A stretch of 64,000 bases of DNA. Origin: Candidatus Nanoarchaeia archaeon. GTDB lineage: Archaea; Nanobdellota; Nanobdellia; Woesearchaeales; SKIA01. Below are positions 3,123 to 46,694 of this stretch, piece by piece. Position numbers and translations under genes: made by a program. The stretch lies in NCBI GenBank assembly GCA_028279685.1, contig JANQNG010000002.1:11922-75921 (forward strand). The letters run 5' to 3'. The notes under the pieces were generated by a model. It did not search any database. It saw only the letters and a program-made list of their open reading frames with translations, and was not told the origin of the DNA. Position 1 is the stretch's first letter. Each line of letters opens with the position of its first letter.

Positions 3123-3578
3123 CTAAACGACTCTTTTCCAAGATCCATCTGGATAAGGGGCTTTTGTTGCTAAATCGGCATCATCAAAAATATAGTCGCT
3201 ATGTTGTGCATAATCAATTAGTTTTTCTTCAAGTTCAATAATGTTCTCTTCATCAAGATTTCCCACTTCAGGAACAACACTGGCAAATAATTCAAGTCTT
3301 TTAGCATCTTCTAATTTCAAATAATTATCAAAAAATTCAATAACACCTCCAAGCATACCACAATCAAAACACCTATATAAATTCAAGTCTTTCGCAAAAT
3401 ACAATGTTCCAACATCATATTCATTTTCCGTTCCAGGACAATACGTTACTAAATATGTCTTGTTCTTAGCAATTTCCTCTATAAAATAACTATTTGGGAA
3501 ATACTTCAAAAACAGATCCTCAATCTTTATTTTTTCCATTAATTCATCTGCTAATCTGACAATATCTTGTTTATCCAT
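3123..3578 (-). CDS. small stand-alone CHC2-type zinc-finger protein (DnaG-primase-like zinc-binding domain)
   Basis: The motif YCPGTENEY...YRCFDCGMLGGVIEF resembles the primase zinc finger CPFHxE...CFGCG. The protein is 151 aa and acidic. Confidence 0.4.
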   Translation of the reverse strand: MDKQDIVRLADELMEKIKIEDLFLKYFPNSYFIEEIAKNKTYLVTYCPGTENEYDVGTLYFAKDLNLYRCFDCGMLGGVIEFFDNYLKLEDAKRLELFASVVPEVGNLDEENIIELEEKLIDYAQHSDYIFDDADLATKAPYPDGSWKRVV

Positions 3579-17737: not shown

Positions 17738-18472
17738 ATGGATAAAAGAAAGCTTAAAGAAATTGGTTTTACCGACAAAGAAGTTGATGTTTATCTCACA
17801 TTATTACGGGTACAAGAAGCTACCGTTTCTGAGATAGCTAAGAAAACCAAAATAAATAGAAGTTTGATGTATAGTGTTTTAGATAGTCTTGCTGAGAAAG
17901 GTATTTCCACATACATCATTAAGAATAATGTAAGATACTATAGAGCAGCAGAACCAGGAAAAATACAAGCTATGTTAAAAGAGAAAGAAAAAATATTTTC
18001 TTCATTGCTTCCTGAACTTATTGCATTACATAAGCCACAAAAGAAAAAACCTATTGTTGAAATTTTAGAAGGAAAAGAAGGTATAAAGACTGTGCTTAAT
18101 GATATTATGACAGTAAAAAAAGAATGGTTTGCATTTAATATTCCTGGAAAAGGTCGAGAATTATTGGGAGGAATGGTTGATGCATTTCAGAAAGAGCGTG
18201 CAGAAGAAGGAATTACTTTGCATGTTATTTATGTGAAAACTCCAAGCGGGATAAAAAGAGGTCAAGAACTCGGAAAAATCAAGAACACCTATGTTAAGTG
18301 CATGCCTGAATCATATGATAGTCCTGCATCAAATCTTATCTACGGCGATAGAATCGTTATTGTTTTCTGGTCTAAAGAACATCCTTTTGCAATACGTATT
18401 ATCGACAAAGATCTTGCAGAGAGTTATAAGAACCAATTCAAAGCCGTATGGAATATCGCTAAAAAAGAATGA
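17738..18472 (+). CDS. trmB: TrmB-family sugar-responsive transcriptional regulator
   Basis: N-terminal winged HTH (FTDKEVDVYLTLLRVQEATVSEIAKKTKINRSLMYSVLDSLAEKG) plus a C-terminal effector domain; 244 aa. Confidence 0.7.
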   Translation: MDKRKLKEIGFTDKEVDVYLTLLRVQEATVSEIAKKTKINRSLMYSVLDSLAEKGISTYIIKNNVRYYRAAEPGKIQAMLKEKEKIFSSLLPELIALHKPQKKKPIVEILEGKEGIKTVLNDIMTVKKEWFAFNIPGKGRELLGGMVDAFQKERAEEGITLHVIYVKTPSGIKRGQELGKIKNTYVKCMPESYDSPASNLIYGDRIVIVFWSKEHPFAIRIIDKDLAESYKNQFKAVWNIAKKE

Positions 18473-18477
18473 TATGC

Positions 18478-18647
18478 GCCGTGGGAGAGAACCGAGAGAA
18501 CGAAGTTCTCGTGGCACCAAAAATCTTTGATTTTTGAGTGTTTCGCCCTTGAGGTTTTATCAATCTATATCGATTCGAACCCTCACTCTGTTAGGCACAG
18601 AACTCGGTCTTGAGCCGAGCGCCAAACCTGACTAGGCTTCCACGGCA
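18478..18647 (-). tRNA. tRNA-Leu(CAA), class II, with an ~84-nt non-canonical intron in the T-loop (position 59/60)
   Basis: On the minus strand the 5' acceptor GCCGTGG pairs perfectly with the 3' CCACGGC+G that lies 169 nt away. The D-arm is GCC/GGC. The anticodon stem-loop CTCGG-CTCAAGA-CCGAG gives anticodon CAA. A variable-arm hairpin TCTGT-GCCTA-ACAGA is present. The T-arm GAGGG-TTCGAA is split from T-CTCTC by the intervening sequence. Position 8-9 is AA, which is unusual. Confidence 0.5.
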
Positions 18648-18689
18648 TAAAATAAAAAAATTTAAATAATTTGAAATCTTTACGAATAA

Positions 18690-18745
18690 TACTCTGTTAG
18701 GCATGGAATTTCTTTGAGTCGGTGCCACTGGTTAGACATCCGCTT
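18690..18745 (-). pseudogene. degenerate partial copy of the tRNA-Leu 5' half (D-arm to variable arm)
   Basis: GGCACCGACTCAAAGA...TGCCTAACAGAGT on the minus strand aligns to GGCGCTCGGCTCAAGA...TGCCTAACAGAGT of the tRNA, about 45 nt upstream of it. Confidence 0.35.
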
Positions 18746-18916
18746 TTATTTTACACATAAATTTTATAAACTTCGGAAATAATTCAACACATACTTCGGT
18801 GGAAGGAAGCTCCAGATCGAGCGACCTTTTTCTTTTTTGTTCTAGAAAACTAAATAGTACTTAAACAATTCCACCAAAAATGTCCTGTGGAAATTTACGA
18901 AGGTTTCGGAAGATAT

Positions 18917-19270
18917 TCACTCAATCCTTTCCCTTTCCTCAATACTATCGAAGAATTCAAAGTTTTTCAGTGTACGATCTGGACTGAACCATATCTTGAT
19001 ACTGCGGCCTTTATCTTGTCTTGTAAAAGTATCTTTACCTCCGAAGAAGTAGAATTCTTCATGGCTTTTATGAACAAGAATATCCAATGTGAACAAACAA
19101 CCTTCTTTTGAGCATTCCTTTTCATAATCTTCCAAGATACCTACGGTTAATCCCATTACATCATTGCGATCAATGTCTCCAGGATTTATTTCTTTAATCA
19201 GAGATCCTGCAGGTGTATCTGTACATGAAGCAATAAAAAGAAGTAAAAGAAATAATAACACATATTTCAT
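18917..19270 (-). CDS. small secreted lipoprotein, hypothetical
   Basis: Signal peptide MKYVLLFLLLLFIASC with a lipobox-like Cys; 117 aa. Confidence 0.45.
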   Translation of the reverse strand: MKYVLLFLLLLFIASCTDTPAGSLIKEINPGDIDRNDVMGLTVGILEDYEKECSKEGCLFTLDILVHKSHEEFYFFGGKDTFTRQDKGRSIKIWFSPDRTLKNFEFFDSIEERERIE

Positions 19271-20991
19271 TTTTTTAGCTGCAACCCTAACTCATCTAAC
19301 TGTTCTTTTTTCACACCAGAAGGAGCACCCATCATAAGATCTTCTGCATTCTTGGTCTTTGGGAATGCTATTACATCTCGTATTGACTCTCCTCCAGACA
19401 TCAACATAACTAAACGATCAAAGCCAAATGCAATACCTCCGTGTGGAGGAGCTCCATATTGTAATGCTTCGATCAAAAAACCAAATTTCTCATTTGCCTC
19501 TTTCTCTGATAAGCCTAACTTCTCGAATACCTTCTTCTGTATATGCATATCATGTATCCTTATAGAGCCTCCTGCAATTTCAAATCCATTCAACGTAAGA
19601 TCATAACCAAGACTTTGTATTTCTGCCAGCTCTCCGTCAAGTTCTTCCGCATCACTAATCTTTGGCATAGTGAAAGGATGATGCATACTCACATATCTTT
19701 CATCTTCTTCATTCCATTCAAACATTGGAAAATCTGTGACCCAACAAAACTGCCATTCCTCTTTCACAAGATTCAATTTATTTGCAAGTTCAATACGCAA
19801 AGCACCTAATGCTTCACAAGTAATAAGCCATTCATCAGCTACAAAAAATACAGTCTCTCCTTTTTGCAGATTCAACTTTTCAATCAGTTCTTTCTTTACA
19901 CTATCAAGGAATTTTGCAACACCACCTTCTAAATCATTGTCGTATTTCACCCAAGCTAATCCTTTTGCTTTATGCACTTTCACCACATCAGTAAGCTTAT
20001 CTATCTCTTTCCTCGAGAAATCATTTTTTACCTTAATACACTTGACTGTTTTCGCATTTTTGAAGACGTTGAACTCTGTTTTCTTCATTATATCAGTAAC
20101 ATCATACAATTCAAGATCAAATCGCAGATCAGGCTTATCACTGCCATAAATATTCATCGCATCTTTATAGCTCATACGCTGGAATGGTATGCTGATATCC
20201 TCGCCAAAGATCTCCTTCCAAAGATATTTCATGAATTTTTCATTTATGCCAATAATATCATCTTGCTCAATAAAACTCATCTCTAAATCAATTTGCGTAA
20301 ATTCTGGCTGGCGATCTTTTCTGAGATCTTCATCTCTAAAACACTTTACAATCTGCACATATTTATCATATCCTGCAATCATAAATAATTGTTTGAAAAT
20401 CTGAGGAGACTGAGGTAATGCATAAAACATACTTTTGTTAATTCTGCTAGGCACAAGATAATCACGCGCACCCTCTGGGGTCGATTTGCCAAGTATAGGT
20501 GTTTCAAGTTCAATAAATTCCTCTTTATTGAAGAAATCTCTCGTAGCTTTAAGGACCTTACTTCGGAGCATCAAAGTATCTTGCATTGGCCTTCTTCTCA
20601 GATCAAGATAGCGATGTTTCAATCTTGTATCTTCAGTCATTTCAGTATTGCCTTCAATATCAATAGGCATTTGTTTTGCAGTACTTAATACTCTTACTTC
20701 TCCATGAATCTCTATAGCTCCTGTTGCTATTTTTTTATTCGGTTGAGGTTTCTTTTTCACAACTCCTTGCACCTGAATAACAAACTCTCTCTTAATATCT
20801 CCTTCTTTAATATTCTCCGCAACTATTTGTGTGATCCCATAACGATCTCTGAGATCTATAAACGTCACATTACCATGATATCTCATAGAATGGATCCATC
20901 CAGCTAGCATAACTGCCTTTCCTTCATCTTTGATTCGCAATTCCCCGCAGGTATGTGTTCGATACATGGAATAAGAGATATGAATGCTCAT
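19267..20991 (-). CDS. aspS: aspartyl-tRNA synthetase, bacterial type with GAD insertion domain
   Basis: N-terminal OB anticodon-binding domain, class II motifs (FRDEDLRKDRQPEFTQIDLEMSF; GGSIRIHD...; GAPPHGGIAFGFDRL), and a ~574 aa length with an insertion between motifs 2 and 3. Confidence 0.9.
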   Translation of the reverse strand: MSIHISYSMYRTHTCGELRIKDEGKAVMLAGWIHSMRYHGNVTFIDLRDRYGITQIVAENIKEGDIKREFVIQVQGVVKKKPQPNKKIATGAIEIHGEVRVLSTAKQMPIDIEGNTEMTEDTRLKHRYLDLRRRPMQDTLMLRSKVLKATRDFFNKEEFIELETPILGKSTPEGARDYLVPSRINKSMFYALPQSPQIFKQLFMIAGYDKYVQIVKCFRDEDLRKDRQPEFTQIDLEMSFIEQDDIIGINEKFMKYLWKEIFGEDISIPFQRMSYKDAMNIYGSDKPDLRFDLELYDVTDIMKKTEFNVFKNAKTVKCIKVKNDFSRKEIDKLTDVVKVHKAKGLAWVKYDNDLEGGVAKFLDSVKKELIEKLNLQKGETVFFVADEWLITCEALGALRIELANKLNLVKEEWQFCWVTDFPMFEWNEEDERYVSMHHPFTMPKISDAEELDGELAEIQSLGYDLTLNGFEIAGGSIRIHDMHIQKKVFEKLGLSEKEANEKFGFLIEALQYGAPPHGGIAFGFDRLVMLMSGGESIRDVIAFPKTKNAEDLMMGAPSGVKKEQLDELGLQLKK

Positions 20992-43991: not shown

Positions 43992-46694
43992 TCAATCATT
44001 ATTTTTGAACGGACCGCTCATATCAAATATCTTCCCCCTGCAACTATTGTTAGTTTCATCAGATTCTCTATAATTATTATCAGAATCTACTATAAAACAA
44101 AAAGACAATAAAGCATTGCCATGCTTTTCATAATATTGTTTAACTTTATCAAATGGAACATACGGTCCTAGATACATTTGATCTTTATTTCCAGGTTCTA
44201 AGGAAATCTTACTATCCAACATTAAATCTATTTCAGGAATCCCAAATTTTATCGGAATATTTTCTAAATAATATGGACTATCATTGTAAAAATTAGCTCT
44301 AACTTGATACATAAAATGCTCTTCTCCAGATCTACTAGGACTAAAAGTCTCATAACTGTATGGATCTGCCCTTAAATCAATAGGTTCATCAGAAACATTT
44401 AATCCACCTACACACACCTCACTTTTCCTACCATCACTTACAGAAAAAACAACATGATAATAACCATTATGCTGAGAATTTGGGGTAAATGTAAACTTCT
44501 TCCCTTGACTAATCACTCTCGTACTATCTGTTAATAAAGTGACATTCGAACCTAAGGAAATATGCTCTTCAAAAACATCTTCTCCTTCTTCTTTCTCTTG
44601 AAGAACAACCCATTTATAATACAACGAATCACCATCCAGATCTTCGACATTAGCTGCAAAATTTATTGGAACTCCTATTGGAACATCAGGATAAGGATCT
44701 CCTTTAAAGAAACGTTCAGGAAATACAGTAATAATACTTGGAGAATAATTACCTTTAACTAAAACATTCCATTCTTGAGTCGATTCAAATACACCATCAT
44801 TTACCACACACTTTACTCTGTGGTTACCAGGATCAATAACCTGAAAATCTAGTTTTACCCTGTCTTTATCATTTGAAAGAGGAACATTATCAAGAAACCA
44901 AGAAAATGAAACATCATCTCTTGATATAAGATCAACCAGAGAAAAATATGCTTCGTCACCTTTTCCAAATTTATGTTTAAGCCTATATGGTCTAAGCTCA
45001 TCTTTTACATCTACCTTAAATTCAACAGGTTTATCTTTCTCTGAAGTCTCAAAAAACCTTTTTTCAGGTTTATATGCATCAATACGAGGAGCTCTATTTT
45101 CATATGATATAAAAATTATTTTCGTATAAATATCTGCTAATCTATCTGAAACAGTTCTTGTCGAAGAAGTATCAGTTTCCATCTGTGCATTTCGTATAAA
45201 ATAAACAATCTCATCATTTTCCTGTCTTTTCTTAAAATCAAATGAGAATCCATATACATAATGACTGCTTTTATCTCTTCTAAGAAACTCAGCCTCTTGC
45301 TTCTTCTTAAGAACACCATTCAATATCCAATAACACGTAGCTCCTTCAAGATTAGCAGAAGTAATTAAAATTTCAGGAAGATCATCTGCCAAACAATACA
45401 TTGGCTGTTCAAATGTTTTTACTGCTTTATTTCGCTCATTTCTTAAAGCCAAATTAGTCGTATCGCTTTGATCATCCCAAATCCATTTAACATAAGAAGT
45501 GTCAGCTCCTCCTTCTATTATAAAATTTTCACCACCATCATTAAAATAAGATTCAAAAGTAGGATATTTATTTCTAAACTCTAGAGCATCTTCAATCCAA
45601 CCTCGTTCATTAGCACGCCATTTTTCATATTCTTTAATTATTCTATTTCCTTCAAATCTTCTCCAAGAAGCATCTCCTGTCAAAAACAAGCCATACAATG
45701 CTGCTGAGCCCAGAAGTATATAAGCAGGAATCTTAATTTTATTCCAAACAGCTTTTCCTATCTTTCCAAAGTTTATTTTTTTTAACTTTCTTCGAAAGCG
45801 ACGTACTTTTCCAAAATCTCTTCCCAACTCACCAACACTTTGAAATCGCTCATCAGGGTCGTAGCGAAGACATTTTCTTAATATTCTTTGAATTCTTTTA
45901 TTTTTTATTCCTTCAAGCTTTCTCTCTAAACTATCATAACTCTTAGGATTATTCAAAACATCTTTCATTTCAGATTTCTTCTCGCATTGGAAAGGGCGTT
46001 CTCTCAGGCAAAGTTCATACAACAACACTCCTAACGACCAAACCTCTGAACGCGCATCAAATTTACCATCAAGCGTTTCAGGTGCTTGATATTCTCTATC
46101 ACCAGAATAGTCTCCTGTAATATCATCACCCATAGCAATACCATAATCAACAACCTTCACCAAACCAGATTTTTCAAGCATAATATTCTCTGGTTTAATA
46201 TCCCTATGAAAGAATCCAGCATGATGAATAGCAGCTACTCCTTTAGTAGTTTGCGAAAATATTGAAACAATCTCACCAAGAGATAATTCCTTCTTTCGCT
46301 CTTGCAAAGAAAGAAGTGTCTCTCCACGAATAATATCAAACAATAAACCATCTACCTTTCTTTCCCTTTCTATCCCATCATTCTCTTCAACAATAGTAAT
46401 ATCATTAATATTTGCTCTATAATTTGCAAGATTAGGATGTTTCAGCATTGAAAGCACATAACCTGTTCTTGATTCAACTTGAGAAAGATCTATTCCTTCT
46501 TTTCTCCTAACTCCTTCAAGCATACGATACGCATTTGAACTATCTCTCAAAGGATTTCCTGGAATAATTTTTAGAGCAAAGATATTATCTTTATTCTTAT
46601 CATCCTGAACTTCAAAGTAATTTCCCGTAGCACCTTCTCCTAATCTCTCAATAACATTATATCCAGGTGCTTCCACGGAAATAATTCTAATCAT
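43992..46694 (-). CDS. transmembrane receptor-like Ser/Thr protein kinase with a large extracytoplasmic beta-rich (Ig/PKD-like) domain
   Basis: N-terminal canonical kinase: GEGATGNYF (Gly loop), ALKII (VAIK Lys), HRDIKPENIML, VVDYG (DFG) and APETL (APE). A single TM helix lies at ~aa 323-341, followed by an ~550-aa extracellular region. Confidence 0.85.
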   Translation of the reverse strand: MIRIISVEAPGYNVIERLGEGATGNYFEVQDDKNKDNIFALKIIPGNPLRDSSNAYRMLEGVRRKEGIDLSQVESRTGYVLSMLKHPNLANYRANINDITIVEENDGIERERKVDGLLFDIIRGETLLSLQERKKELSLGEIVSIFSQTTKGVAAIHHAGFFHRDIKPENIMLEKSGLVKVVDYGIAMGDDITGDYSGDREYQAPETLDGKFDARSEVWSLGVLLYELCLRERPFQCEKKSEMKDVLNNPKSYDSLERKLEGIKNKRIQRILRKCLRYDPDERFQSVGELGRDFGKVRRFRRKLKKINFGKIGKAVWNKIKIPAYILLGSAALYGLFLTGDASWRRFEGNRIIKEYEKWRANERGWIEDALEFRNKYPTFESYFNDGGENFIIEGGADTSYVKWIWDDQSDTTNLALRNERNKAVKTFEQPMYCLADDLPEILITSANLEGATCYWILNGVLKKKQEAEFLRRDKSSHYVYGFSFDFKKRQENDEIVYFIRNAQMETDTSSTRTVSDRLADIYTKIIFISYENRAPRIDAYKPEKRFFETSEKDKPVEFKVDVKDELRPYRLKHKFGKGDEAYFSLVDLISRDDVSFSWFLDNVPLSNDKDRVKLDFQVIDPGNHRVKCVVNDGVFESTQEWNVLVKGNYSPSIITVFPERFFKGDPYPDVPIGVPINFAANVEDLDGDSLYYKWVVLQEKEEGEDVFEEHISLGSNVTLLTDSTRVISQGKKFTFTPNSQHNGYYHVVFSVSDGRKSEVCVGGLNVSDEPIDLRADPYSYETFSPSRSGEEHFMYQVRANFYNDSPYYLENIPIKFGIPEIDLMLDSKISLEPGNKDQMYLGPYVPFDKVKQYYEKHGNALLSFCFIVDSDNNYRESDETNNSCRGKIFDMSGPFKNND

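Follow-up and report, generated by a model that had tools for sequence, protein, structure and literature searches.

A probable T-loop intron in a class II tRNA-Leu(CAA) gene of a Woesearchaeota-like DPANN archaeon

Results

An interrupted tRNA gene on the minus strand

An interrupted class II tRNA(CAA) gene of 170 nt runs from 18646 to 18477 on the minus strand of the window, by which we mean the whole stretch of DNA that was analysed (64,000 nucleotides). The initial annotation had placed it at 18478-18647 and was right that there is a real gene here, though it gave no strand. Read along the minus strand, the sequence opens with GCCGTGG (18646-18640) and AA, followed by the D arm GCC-TAGTCAGGTTT-GGC and a G; it continues with CTCGG-CTCAAGA-CCGAG, TTCTGT-GCCTA-ACAGAG-T and GAGGG-TTCGAAT; and, beyond the insert, it closes with CTCTC, CCACGGC (18484-18478) and the discriminator G (18477), with no CCA encoded at the 3' end of exon 2 (Table 1). 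When 18572-18490 is deleted, ARAGORN calls the 87-mer that is left as tRNA-Leu(CAA) with all of its stems paired, whereas the unspliced gene receives no call, which upholds the earlier proposal of a class II tRNA(CAA) gene split by an insert in the T-loop. The insert measures 83 nt rather than the ~84 nt first proposed, and its boundaries can be moved by -1 or +1 nt with no change to the product. The two exons are colinear and 83 nt apart, and we therefore rejected a split or permuted tRNA gene.

Table 1. Features of the interrupted tRNA gene and its 5' flank (window positions, listed from the 3' end of the gene).
Feature	Position	Strand	Description
Exon 2	18477..18489	-	CTCTC (T stem 3' strand), CCACGGC (acceptor 3' strand), G73
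Insert (putative intron)	18490..18572	-	83 nt, CGATAT...CTCGGTT
Central helix, intron strand TCGG	18492..18495	-	followed by TT^C61 as 3' splice bulge or internal loop
Intron hairpin GAGAAC-TTC-GTTCTC	18496..18510	-	directly adjoins the central helix
Intron hairpin AAAAATC-AAA-GATTTTT	18519..18535	-	from folding
Exon 1	18573..18646	-	tRNA positions 1-60 in the 60/61 register: GCCGTGG, A8 A9, D arm, CTCGG-CTCAAGA-CCGAG, long variable arm, GAGGG, T-loop TTCGAAT
Central helix, exon strand T55 C56 G57 A58	18575..18578	-	pairs with 18492-18495
Spacer 5' of the tRNA	18647..18690	-	A/T-rich, includes ATTATTTAAAT
Decayed partial copy of the tRNA 5' part (~positions 1-62)	18691..18743	-	from local alignment

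In the spliced form the acceptor stem has 7 bp, which is the GCCGTGG/CCACGGC pairing predicted at the outset, the D stem has 3 bp, the anticodon stem 5 bp and the T stem 5 bp including one G-U; the variable arm, with a stem of 5-6 bp and a loop of 5 nt, is that of a class II tRNA, the T-loop reads TTCGAAT, and the ARAGORN cloverleaf confirms the anticodon loop CTCAAGA that had been named, with its anticodon CAA. All of the ~25 stem pairs are intact, the T-loop, G18G19, U33, G37 and G53-C61 are also kept, and folding of the spliced sequence against shuffles gives a z-score of -3.05. The pairs that bridge the insert, in the T stem and the acceptor stem, are intact in every case (12/12). If G-U is allowed everywhere, 300 nt of sequence should contain by chance 7e-3 segments of 12 nt on the 3' side that can pair with GAGGG as well as with GCCGTGG, and for the quality observed here (11 Watson-Crick pairs and one G-U) the calculated chance expectation is ~1e-5. 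Over 18300-18950, the sequence agrees at every position with an independent Logan assembly of the same sample, whose contig ends close to the end of the window. Given this pairing expectation and the identical second assembly, the interrupted tRNA is real, and neither a product of chance nor an assembly artefact.

The spacer on the 5' side of the gene is where an archaeal TATA-type promoter would be expected. At the other end (18470-18477), only 4 nt lie between the tRNA 3' end and the stop codon of the convergent TrmB gene, and an oligo-T run that could serve as a terminator of the tRNA transcript is the antisense of the last Lys codons of TrmB.

Host, neighbourhood and search for relatives

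The genes of the window include SecD/SecF, prefoldin, RadA, a TrmB-family regulator and a bacterial-type AspRS, and its G+C content is 35%. The best homologues of TrmB (≤67% identity) and AspRS (≤65%) are named Woesearchaeota, Pacearchaeota, Nanoarchaeia or Nanobdellota. Judged by these neighbouring genes, and in keeping with the DPANN link drawn by the initial annotation, the host is a Woesearchaeota/Nanoarchaeota-like member of the DPANN; the databases searched contain no close relative. Relaxed-motif introns in the T-loop have been documented for DPANN archaea (PMC3239211). The AspRS (19267-20991, minus strand; 574 aa) has the bacterial form, including the GAD insertion domain, although it sits in an archaeal genome; its closest homologues are also DPANN, with one labelled Patescibacteria. 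Near the window start (5-1057 and 3123-3578) there is a borderline match to a Zot-family P-loop (22.1 bits; cutoff 20.3) and a sub-threshold match to a CHC2 primase zinc finger (22.0 bits; cutoff 24.9), and this region may be derived from a virus or plasmid.

The search for relatives of the gene took several routes. The 117-aa ORF adjoining the tRNA is an orphan, with no homologue usable as a marker. Scanning genome contigs for the D-arm plus anticodon pattern gave 23 matches, none of them from Nanoarchaeota and all judged by their titles to be chance, and the source genome was also unmatched; nothing tRNA-like was seen among the matches listed (at least 120) in a metagenome scan with the 17-nt anticodon arm, and scans of viral contigs for exon 1 gave 0 matches. 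Synteny traced through the TrmB and AspRS neighbours is not kept: no relative exceeds 67% identity, and the flanking DNA is not the same. Neither a homologous intron nor a related tRNA for covariation was thus retrieved from the genome-contig scan, the metagenome matches listed, the viral scans or the related loci. In the annotated parts of the window (up to about 28.5 kb and beyond about 50 kb), no EndA or RtcB gene was seen.

The gene escapes standard tRNA finders

Across the whole 64-kb window, no real tRNA is reported by ARAGORN in its default, intron and relaxed modes, or by Rfam at the gathering threshold. Given a 191-nt slice, the Rfam tRNA model returns only a partial match of 14 bits, covering the D and anticodon arms of exon 1 (18593-18646). 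The gene is invisible to both programs because it combines a long T-loop insert with a splice motif of the relaxed kind only. ARAGORN and Rfam also find no tRNA in ~85 kb of related DPANN loci; that both the window and these related contigs appear free of tRNAs could be chance, or perhaps disrupted tRNA genes are common in the clade. A second GGTTCGAAT, at 44544, falls within a 900-aa ORF and was rejected as a tRNA.

Splice register and junction motif

The dinucleotide TC occurs at both junctions (...GAA TC GAT... and ...GGT TC TCT...), and cuts at 59/60, 60/61 or 61/62 would therefore yield one and the same mature RNA, such that the position cannot be fixed from the sequence. Each of the three registers was scored in the two mirror-image geometries. 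The canonical motif has two 3-nt bulges separated by a 4-bp helix, and cleavage follows the second base of the bulge, a position that results from the first two anticodon bases sitting in the central helix (PMC4090602). Here, a full 4-bp central helix forms in the 60/61 register only, where U55 C56 G57 A58 pair with UCGG at intron positions -6 to -3; the 59/60 position put forward in the initial annotation has 2/4 central pairs, against 4/4 for 60/61, and is thus one of three possible registers and not the best of them.

In the 60/61 register, a bulge of 3 nt, A59 U60^C, and then an intron helix of 2 bp make up the 5' side, while on the 3' side U U^C61 lies opposite U54 (or G53 + U54) in an internal loop, with no clean bulge. 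The order at the junctions is then the T stem, a 1x2 or 2x3 internal loop with UU^C61, the 4-bp helix, and a loop or bulge with A59 U60^C. Scored against the strict hBHBh' form, this register has all four central pairs, an intron-side helix of 2 bp and a contiguous exon-side helix of 0 bp, and so departs from it; what it does contain is a central helix together with at least one bulge or loop splice site by a flanking helix, as in the relaxed forms hBH, HBh' and BHL. The junction motif is a relaxed bulge-helix-bulge (hBH/BHL-like) and the strict form is excluded, as the initial annotation had anticipated. A 4-bp central helix in an allowed register arises in 5.9% of intron shuffles, and the same helix combined with an intron-side helix of at least 2 bp in 0.8%. 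When the cloverleaf and T stem are imposed in RNAfold, the U55-A58/UCGG helix arises on its own, and the GAGAAC-TTC-GTTCTC hairpin stacks directly on it; unconstrained folding favours other pairings, for example of UGAGG with the intron CCUCA.

Features within the insert

The GAGAAC-TTC-GTTCTC hairpin is present in the insert (18510-18496) just as it was first described, and folding adds a second (Table 1); the insert as a whole gives a folding z-score of -1.66. Two further identities were considered and rejected: a degenerate copy of a T arm, since the similarity is not significant, and a box C/D sRNA, since inspection of the intron revealed no C or D boxes and a weak SNORD28 match (E = 3.1) lies outside it. 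The insert also holds a strict 3-4-3 BHB-like arrangement at gene positions 73-131 (window 18516-18574, minus strand), with an outer helix of 5 bp, a central helix of 4 bp and an inner helix of 4 bp, which would excise 42 nt. Shuffling gives a motif in which both flanking helices reach 4 bp or more in 1.2% of cases for the insert and in 8.75% for the whole gene, and we treat this arrangement as unexplained.

tRNA identity and the decoding of UUG

The universal tRNA core comprises U8, A14, G18G19, A21, U33, G53, T54-Psi55-C56, A58 and C61. A14, G18G19, U33, G53, TTC, A58 and C61 are present in this gene, and A8 (18639) and U21 (18624), on the minus strand, stand in place of U8 and A21. With regard to identity, the gene pairs a Leu anticodon with a long variable arm, as a tRNA-Leu should; its discriminator, however, is G73 (18477) and not the A73 of tRNA-Leu. 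The description of all other arms as canonical for tRNA-Leu hence does not hold, given that G73, A8 and U21 deviate. A73 is the main Leu determinant in the bacteria, archaea and eukaryotes studied; in those systems that have been studied, the Ser-type G73 acts as an antideterminant against LeuRS (PMC9976931). Is G73 then a peculiarity of the lineage, or a sign of decay? It could be either; together with the adjacent relic described below, this discriminator is the most unusual feature of the gene.

The codon usage of the neighbouring genes bears on what a tRNA(CAA) would read. TTG accounts for 11/49 Leu codons in AspRS. Every TTG codon tested (15/15; 11 in AspRS and 4 in TrmB) falls in a Leu, Ile or hydrophobic column, with 119 homologues for each protein; the TTG columns have a mean Leu fraction of 0.62-0.66 and a Ser fraction of at most 0.01, equal to those of TTA and CTN codons. 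As TTG codons occupy leucine positions, UUG is leucine in this genome and the code is unchanged; and as TTG is commonly used as leucine, a reader for UUG is needed.

A decayed tRNA fragment upstream

Local alignment reveals a relic of the 5' part of the tRNA on the upstream side of the gene. Its near end is separated from the gene 5' end by 44 nt, and its start lies 97 nt upstream (18743 versus 18646). The alignment scores 50 compared with 24.5 +/- 4.0 for shuffles, a score reached by 0/500 of these, and the left part alone, from acceptor to anticodon, gives p = 0.004; no significant similarity extends into the T-loop and intron. Relic and gene have the 13-mer TGCCTAACAGAGT in common without a mismatch, and the pairing of the relic's stems is lost. 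We posit that the relic may have been left behind when the tRNA locus recombined or was duplicated in tandem. As it shows what neutral decay looks like at this same locus, the intact stems of the interrupted gene become more telling; and as A8 is common to the gene and its decayed upstream copy, this nucleotide is ancient, older than the duplication, and not the result of fresh decay. There is also a perfect 8-nt complementarity between the relic (18724-18731, GTGGCACC, minus) and the intron (18511-18518, GGTGCCAC, minus), which by our estimate is found by chance in ~10% of such region pairs, and which is probably not meaningful.

Discussion

We consider it likely that this locus, in a Woesearchaeota-like DPANN archaeon, is a functional tRNA-Leu(CAA) gene with an intron, on the grounds that removal of the insert restores a cloverleaf, that the 12 bridging pairs are intact, that a central helix is present at the junctions, that a UUG reader is needed, that the host is of the DPANN and that a second assembly is identical. 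Against this reading stand the absence of a strict 3-4-3 motif at the junctions, an intron-side helix of just 2 bp, the differing unconstrained fold, the deviations G73, A8 and U21, and two negative results, in that the sequences searched yielded no homologous intron and the annotated parts of the window no EndA or RtcB gene.

The insert most likely belongs to a known type of intron, one spliced by proteins, and we infer that the tRNA is transcribed, cleaved, ligated and charged. In a primary transcript made up of the 170 nt plus a leader and a trailer, U55-A58 of the T-loop would pair with UCGG near the insert 3' end, and the junctions A59 U60^C and U U^C61 would flank a helix of 4 bp that stacks on the T stem. 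Cleavage at the two sites would be the work of the archaeal splicing endonuclease (EndA), and the exons of 74 nt and 13 nt would be joined by a ligase of the RtcB type; the resulting 87-nt tRNA would then gain its CCA and read UUG as leucine. The insert itself may have originated through duplication or recombination at the tRNA locus, an origin that would also explain the decayed 5' tRNA fragment upstream.

A different view of the same sequence is that of a recently inactivated pseudogene, in which an 83-bp insertion into the T-loop – whether a duplication scar, or the trace of a mobile element that integrated and was then imprecisely lost – broke the gene, leaving UUG to be read by a tRNA-Leu(UAA) or by another CAA copy. 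G73, A8 and U21 are indeed atypical of tRNA-Leu (PMC9976931), the BHB motif is relaxed and no better, and the adjoining decayed fragment speaks of a rearranged locus; elsewhere, mobile-element recombination has been connected with the gain of an intron alongside a 5' tRNA fragment (PMC3293823). However, some 25 stem pairs are intact, along with the T-loop, G18G19, U33, G37 and G53-C61, whilst the neighbouring copy has lost its stems; A8, which that copy also carries, predates the duplication; and a central helix that is correctly placed is improbable by chance (0.8-6%). On balance, we regard inactivation as unlikely.

Could the insert instead be two nested introns that are removed stepwise, with an inner one of 42 nt (gene positions 80-121), bounded by the strict 3-4-3 BHB, leaving first and the rest afterwards? 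The motif over gene positions 73-131, with its outer helix of 5 bp and inner helix of 4 bp, would lend itself to this, and archaea are known to remove adjacent introns step by step (PMC8450103, PMC3239211). Yet taking out 80-121 gives no better BHB for the remaining 41 nt, the helices of the motif are rich in A-U and G-U and compete with the stronger hairpin at 18535-18519, and the significance of the motif is marginal (1.2-8.75% of shuffles); we hold such an arrangement to be very unlikely.

Two further explanations carry hardly any weight. A class II tRNA with G73 could in principle accept serine whilst bearing a Leu anticodon, UUG being reassigned to serine or ambiguous; this is extremely improbable, as the TTG column composition in the AspRS and TrmB homologues contradicts it, with 15/15 codons in Leu, Ile or hydrophobic columns and Ser at ≤0.01. 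The core of a group I or group II ribozyme spans at least about 200 nt, and an insert of 83 nt falls far short of that. That the insert is a self-splicing intron (group I introns do occur in archaea; PMC6125680), that it is a mobile insertion element, or that the whole is a chance resemblance to a tRNA has a negligible probability, considering that the insert matches nothing in Rfam even at E ≤ 10, that it has no terminal inverted repeats on inspection and no second copy within the window, and that the bridging-pair expectation excludes chance.

If the reading of a functional, intron-containing gene is taken further, one could speculate that the lineage uses a tRNA-Leu with a Ser-type G73 and an A8/U21 core, under LeuRS identity rules unlike any studied so far, and that the locus is a snapshot of intron gain in the T-loop of a class II tRNA, by a duplication or recombination that left the 5' fragment behind. 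As a whole, this scenario is doubtful, and we offer it as a conjecture.

What, then, would such a gene mean? The interrupted tRNA-Leu(CAA) gene changes no established concept. If functional, it would add a class II tRNA-Leu of a Woesearchaeota-like group to the tRNAs that have non-canonical T-loop introns; no translocatable intron or split gene had been noted in class II tRNAs at the time of the survey by Kanai in 2015 (PMC4390854). It would also offer a natural substrate on which to test how far a DPANN alpha4/L3-loop endonuclease tolerates relaxed motifs, and a natural G73 tRNA-Leu with which to test the identity rules of LeuRS. Above all, the gene is a concrete case of a tRNA missed by annotation, and mainly shows why standard finders overlook genes of this kind; in the annotation of DPANN genomes, tRNA sets are often reported as incomplete.

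The closest parallel comes from ARMAN-2 (Micrarchaeota, DPANN), where pre-tRNA-Cys(GCA) has a 13-nt intron at 59/60 with a relaxed hBH/BHL motif and is cut in vitro by an epsilon2 endonuclease (PMC3239211). Both hosts belong to the DPANN, and in both genes the intron interrupts the T-loop in its 3' half, T-loop bases form a central helix stacked on the T stem, and one splice site sits in a loop with no clean 3-nt bulge. The present insert differs in its length of 83 nt and its internal hairpins, in belonging to a class II tRNA-Leu, and in its best register of 60/61. The enzyme may differ as well. An alpha4 EndA that carries an additional L3 loop is described for Woesearchaeota and Pacearchaeota, as are numerous disrupted tRNA genes and predicted tRNA sets that are incomplete (PMC5829648), and by this literature an alpha4 enzyme with the L3 loop is suggested for Woesearchaeota, as a statement about the clade and not about the host's own gene.

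The canonical intron at 37/38, with its strict hBHBh' 3-4-3 motif (PMC4090602), follows the same principle: loop bases by a 5-bp stem pair with the intron 3' end, a 4-bp helix forms, and the cuts fall on either side of it. The T arm here is thus the structural equivalent of the anticodon arm in that system; the arm is another one, the 3' bulge is unclean and the intron-side helix has 2 bp. Likewise, the non-canonical and multiple introns of Thermoproteales and Thaumarchaeota (PMC8450103, PMC4033280) lie outside 37/38, often have relaxed motifs and are missed by ordinary finders, although the phylum here is a different one. With respect to the history of the locus, tRNA-Thr(GGU) of Caldiarchaeum subterraneum combines intron gain with an upstream 5' tRNA fragment, which has been attributed to mobile-element integration and recombination (PMC3293823). 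As in that archaeon, the tRNA gene contains an intron and is closely preceded by a fragment of its own 5' part; but whereas 1.8 kb with a recombinase gene lie between the two in C. subterraneum, the fragment here starts 97 nt upstream, has no recombinase gene between it and the tRNA, and is heavily decayed.
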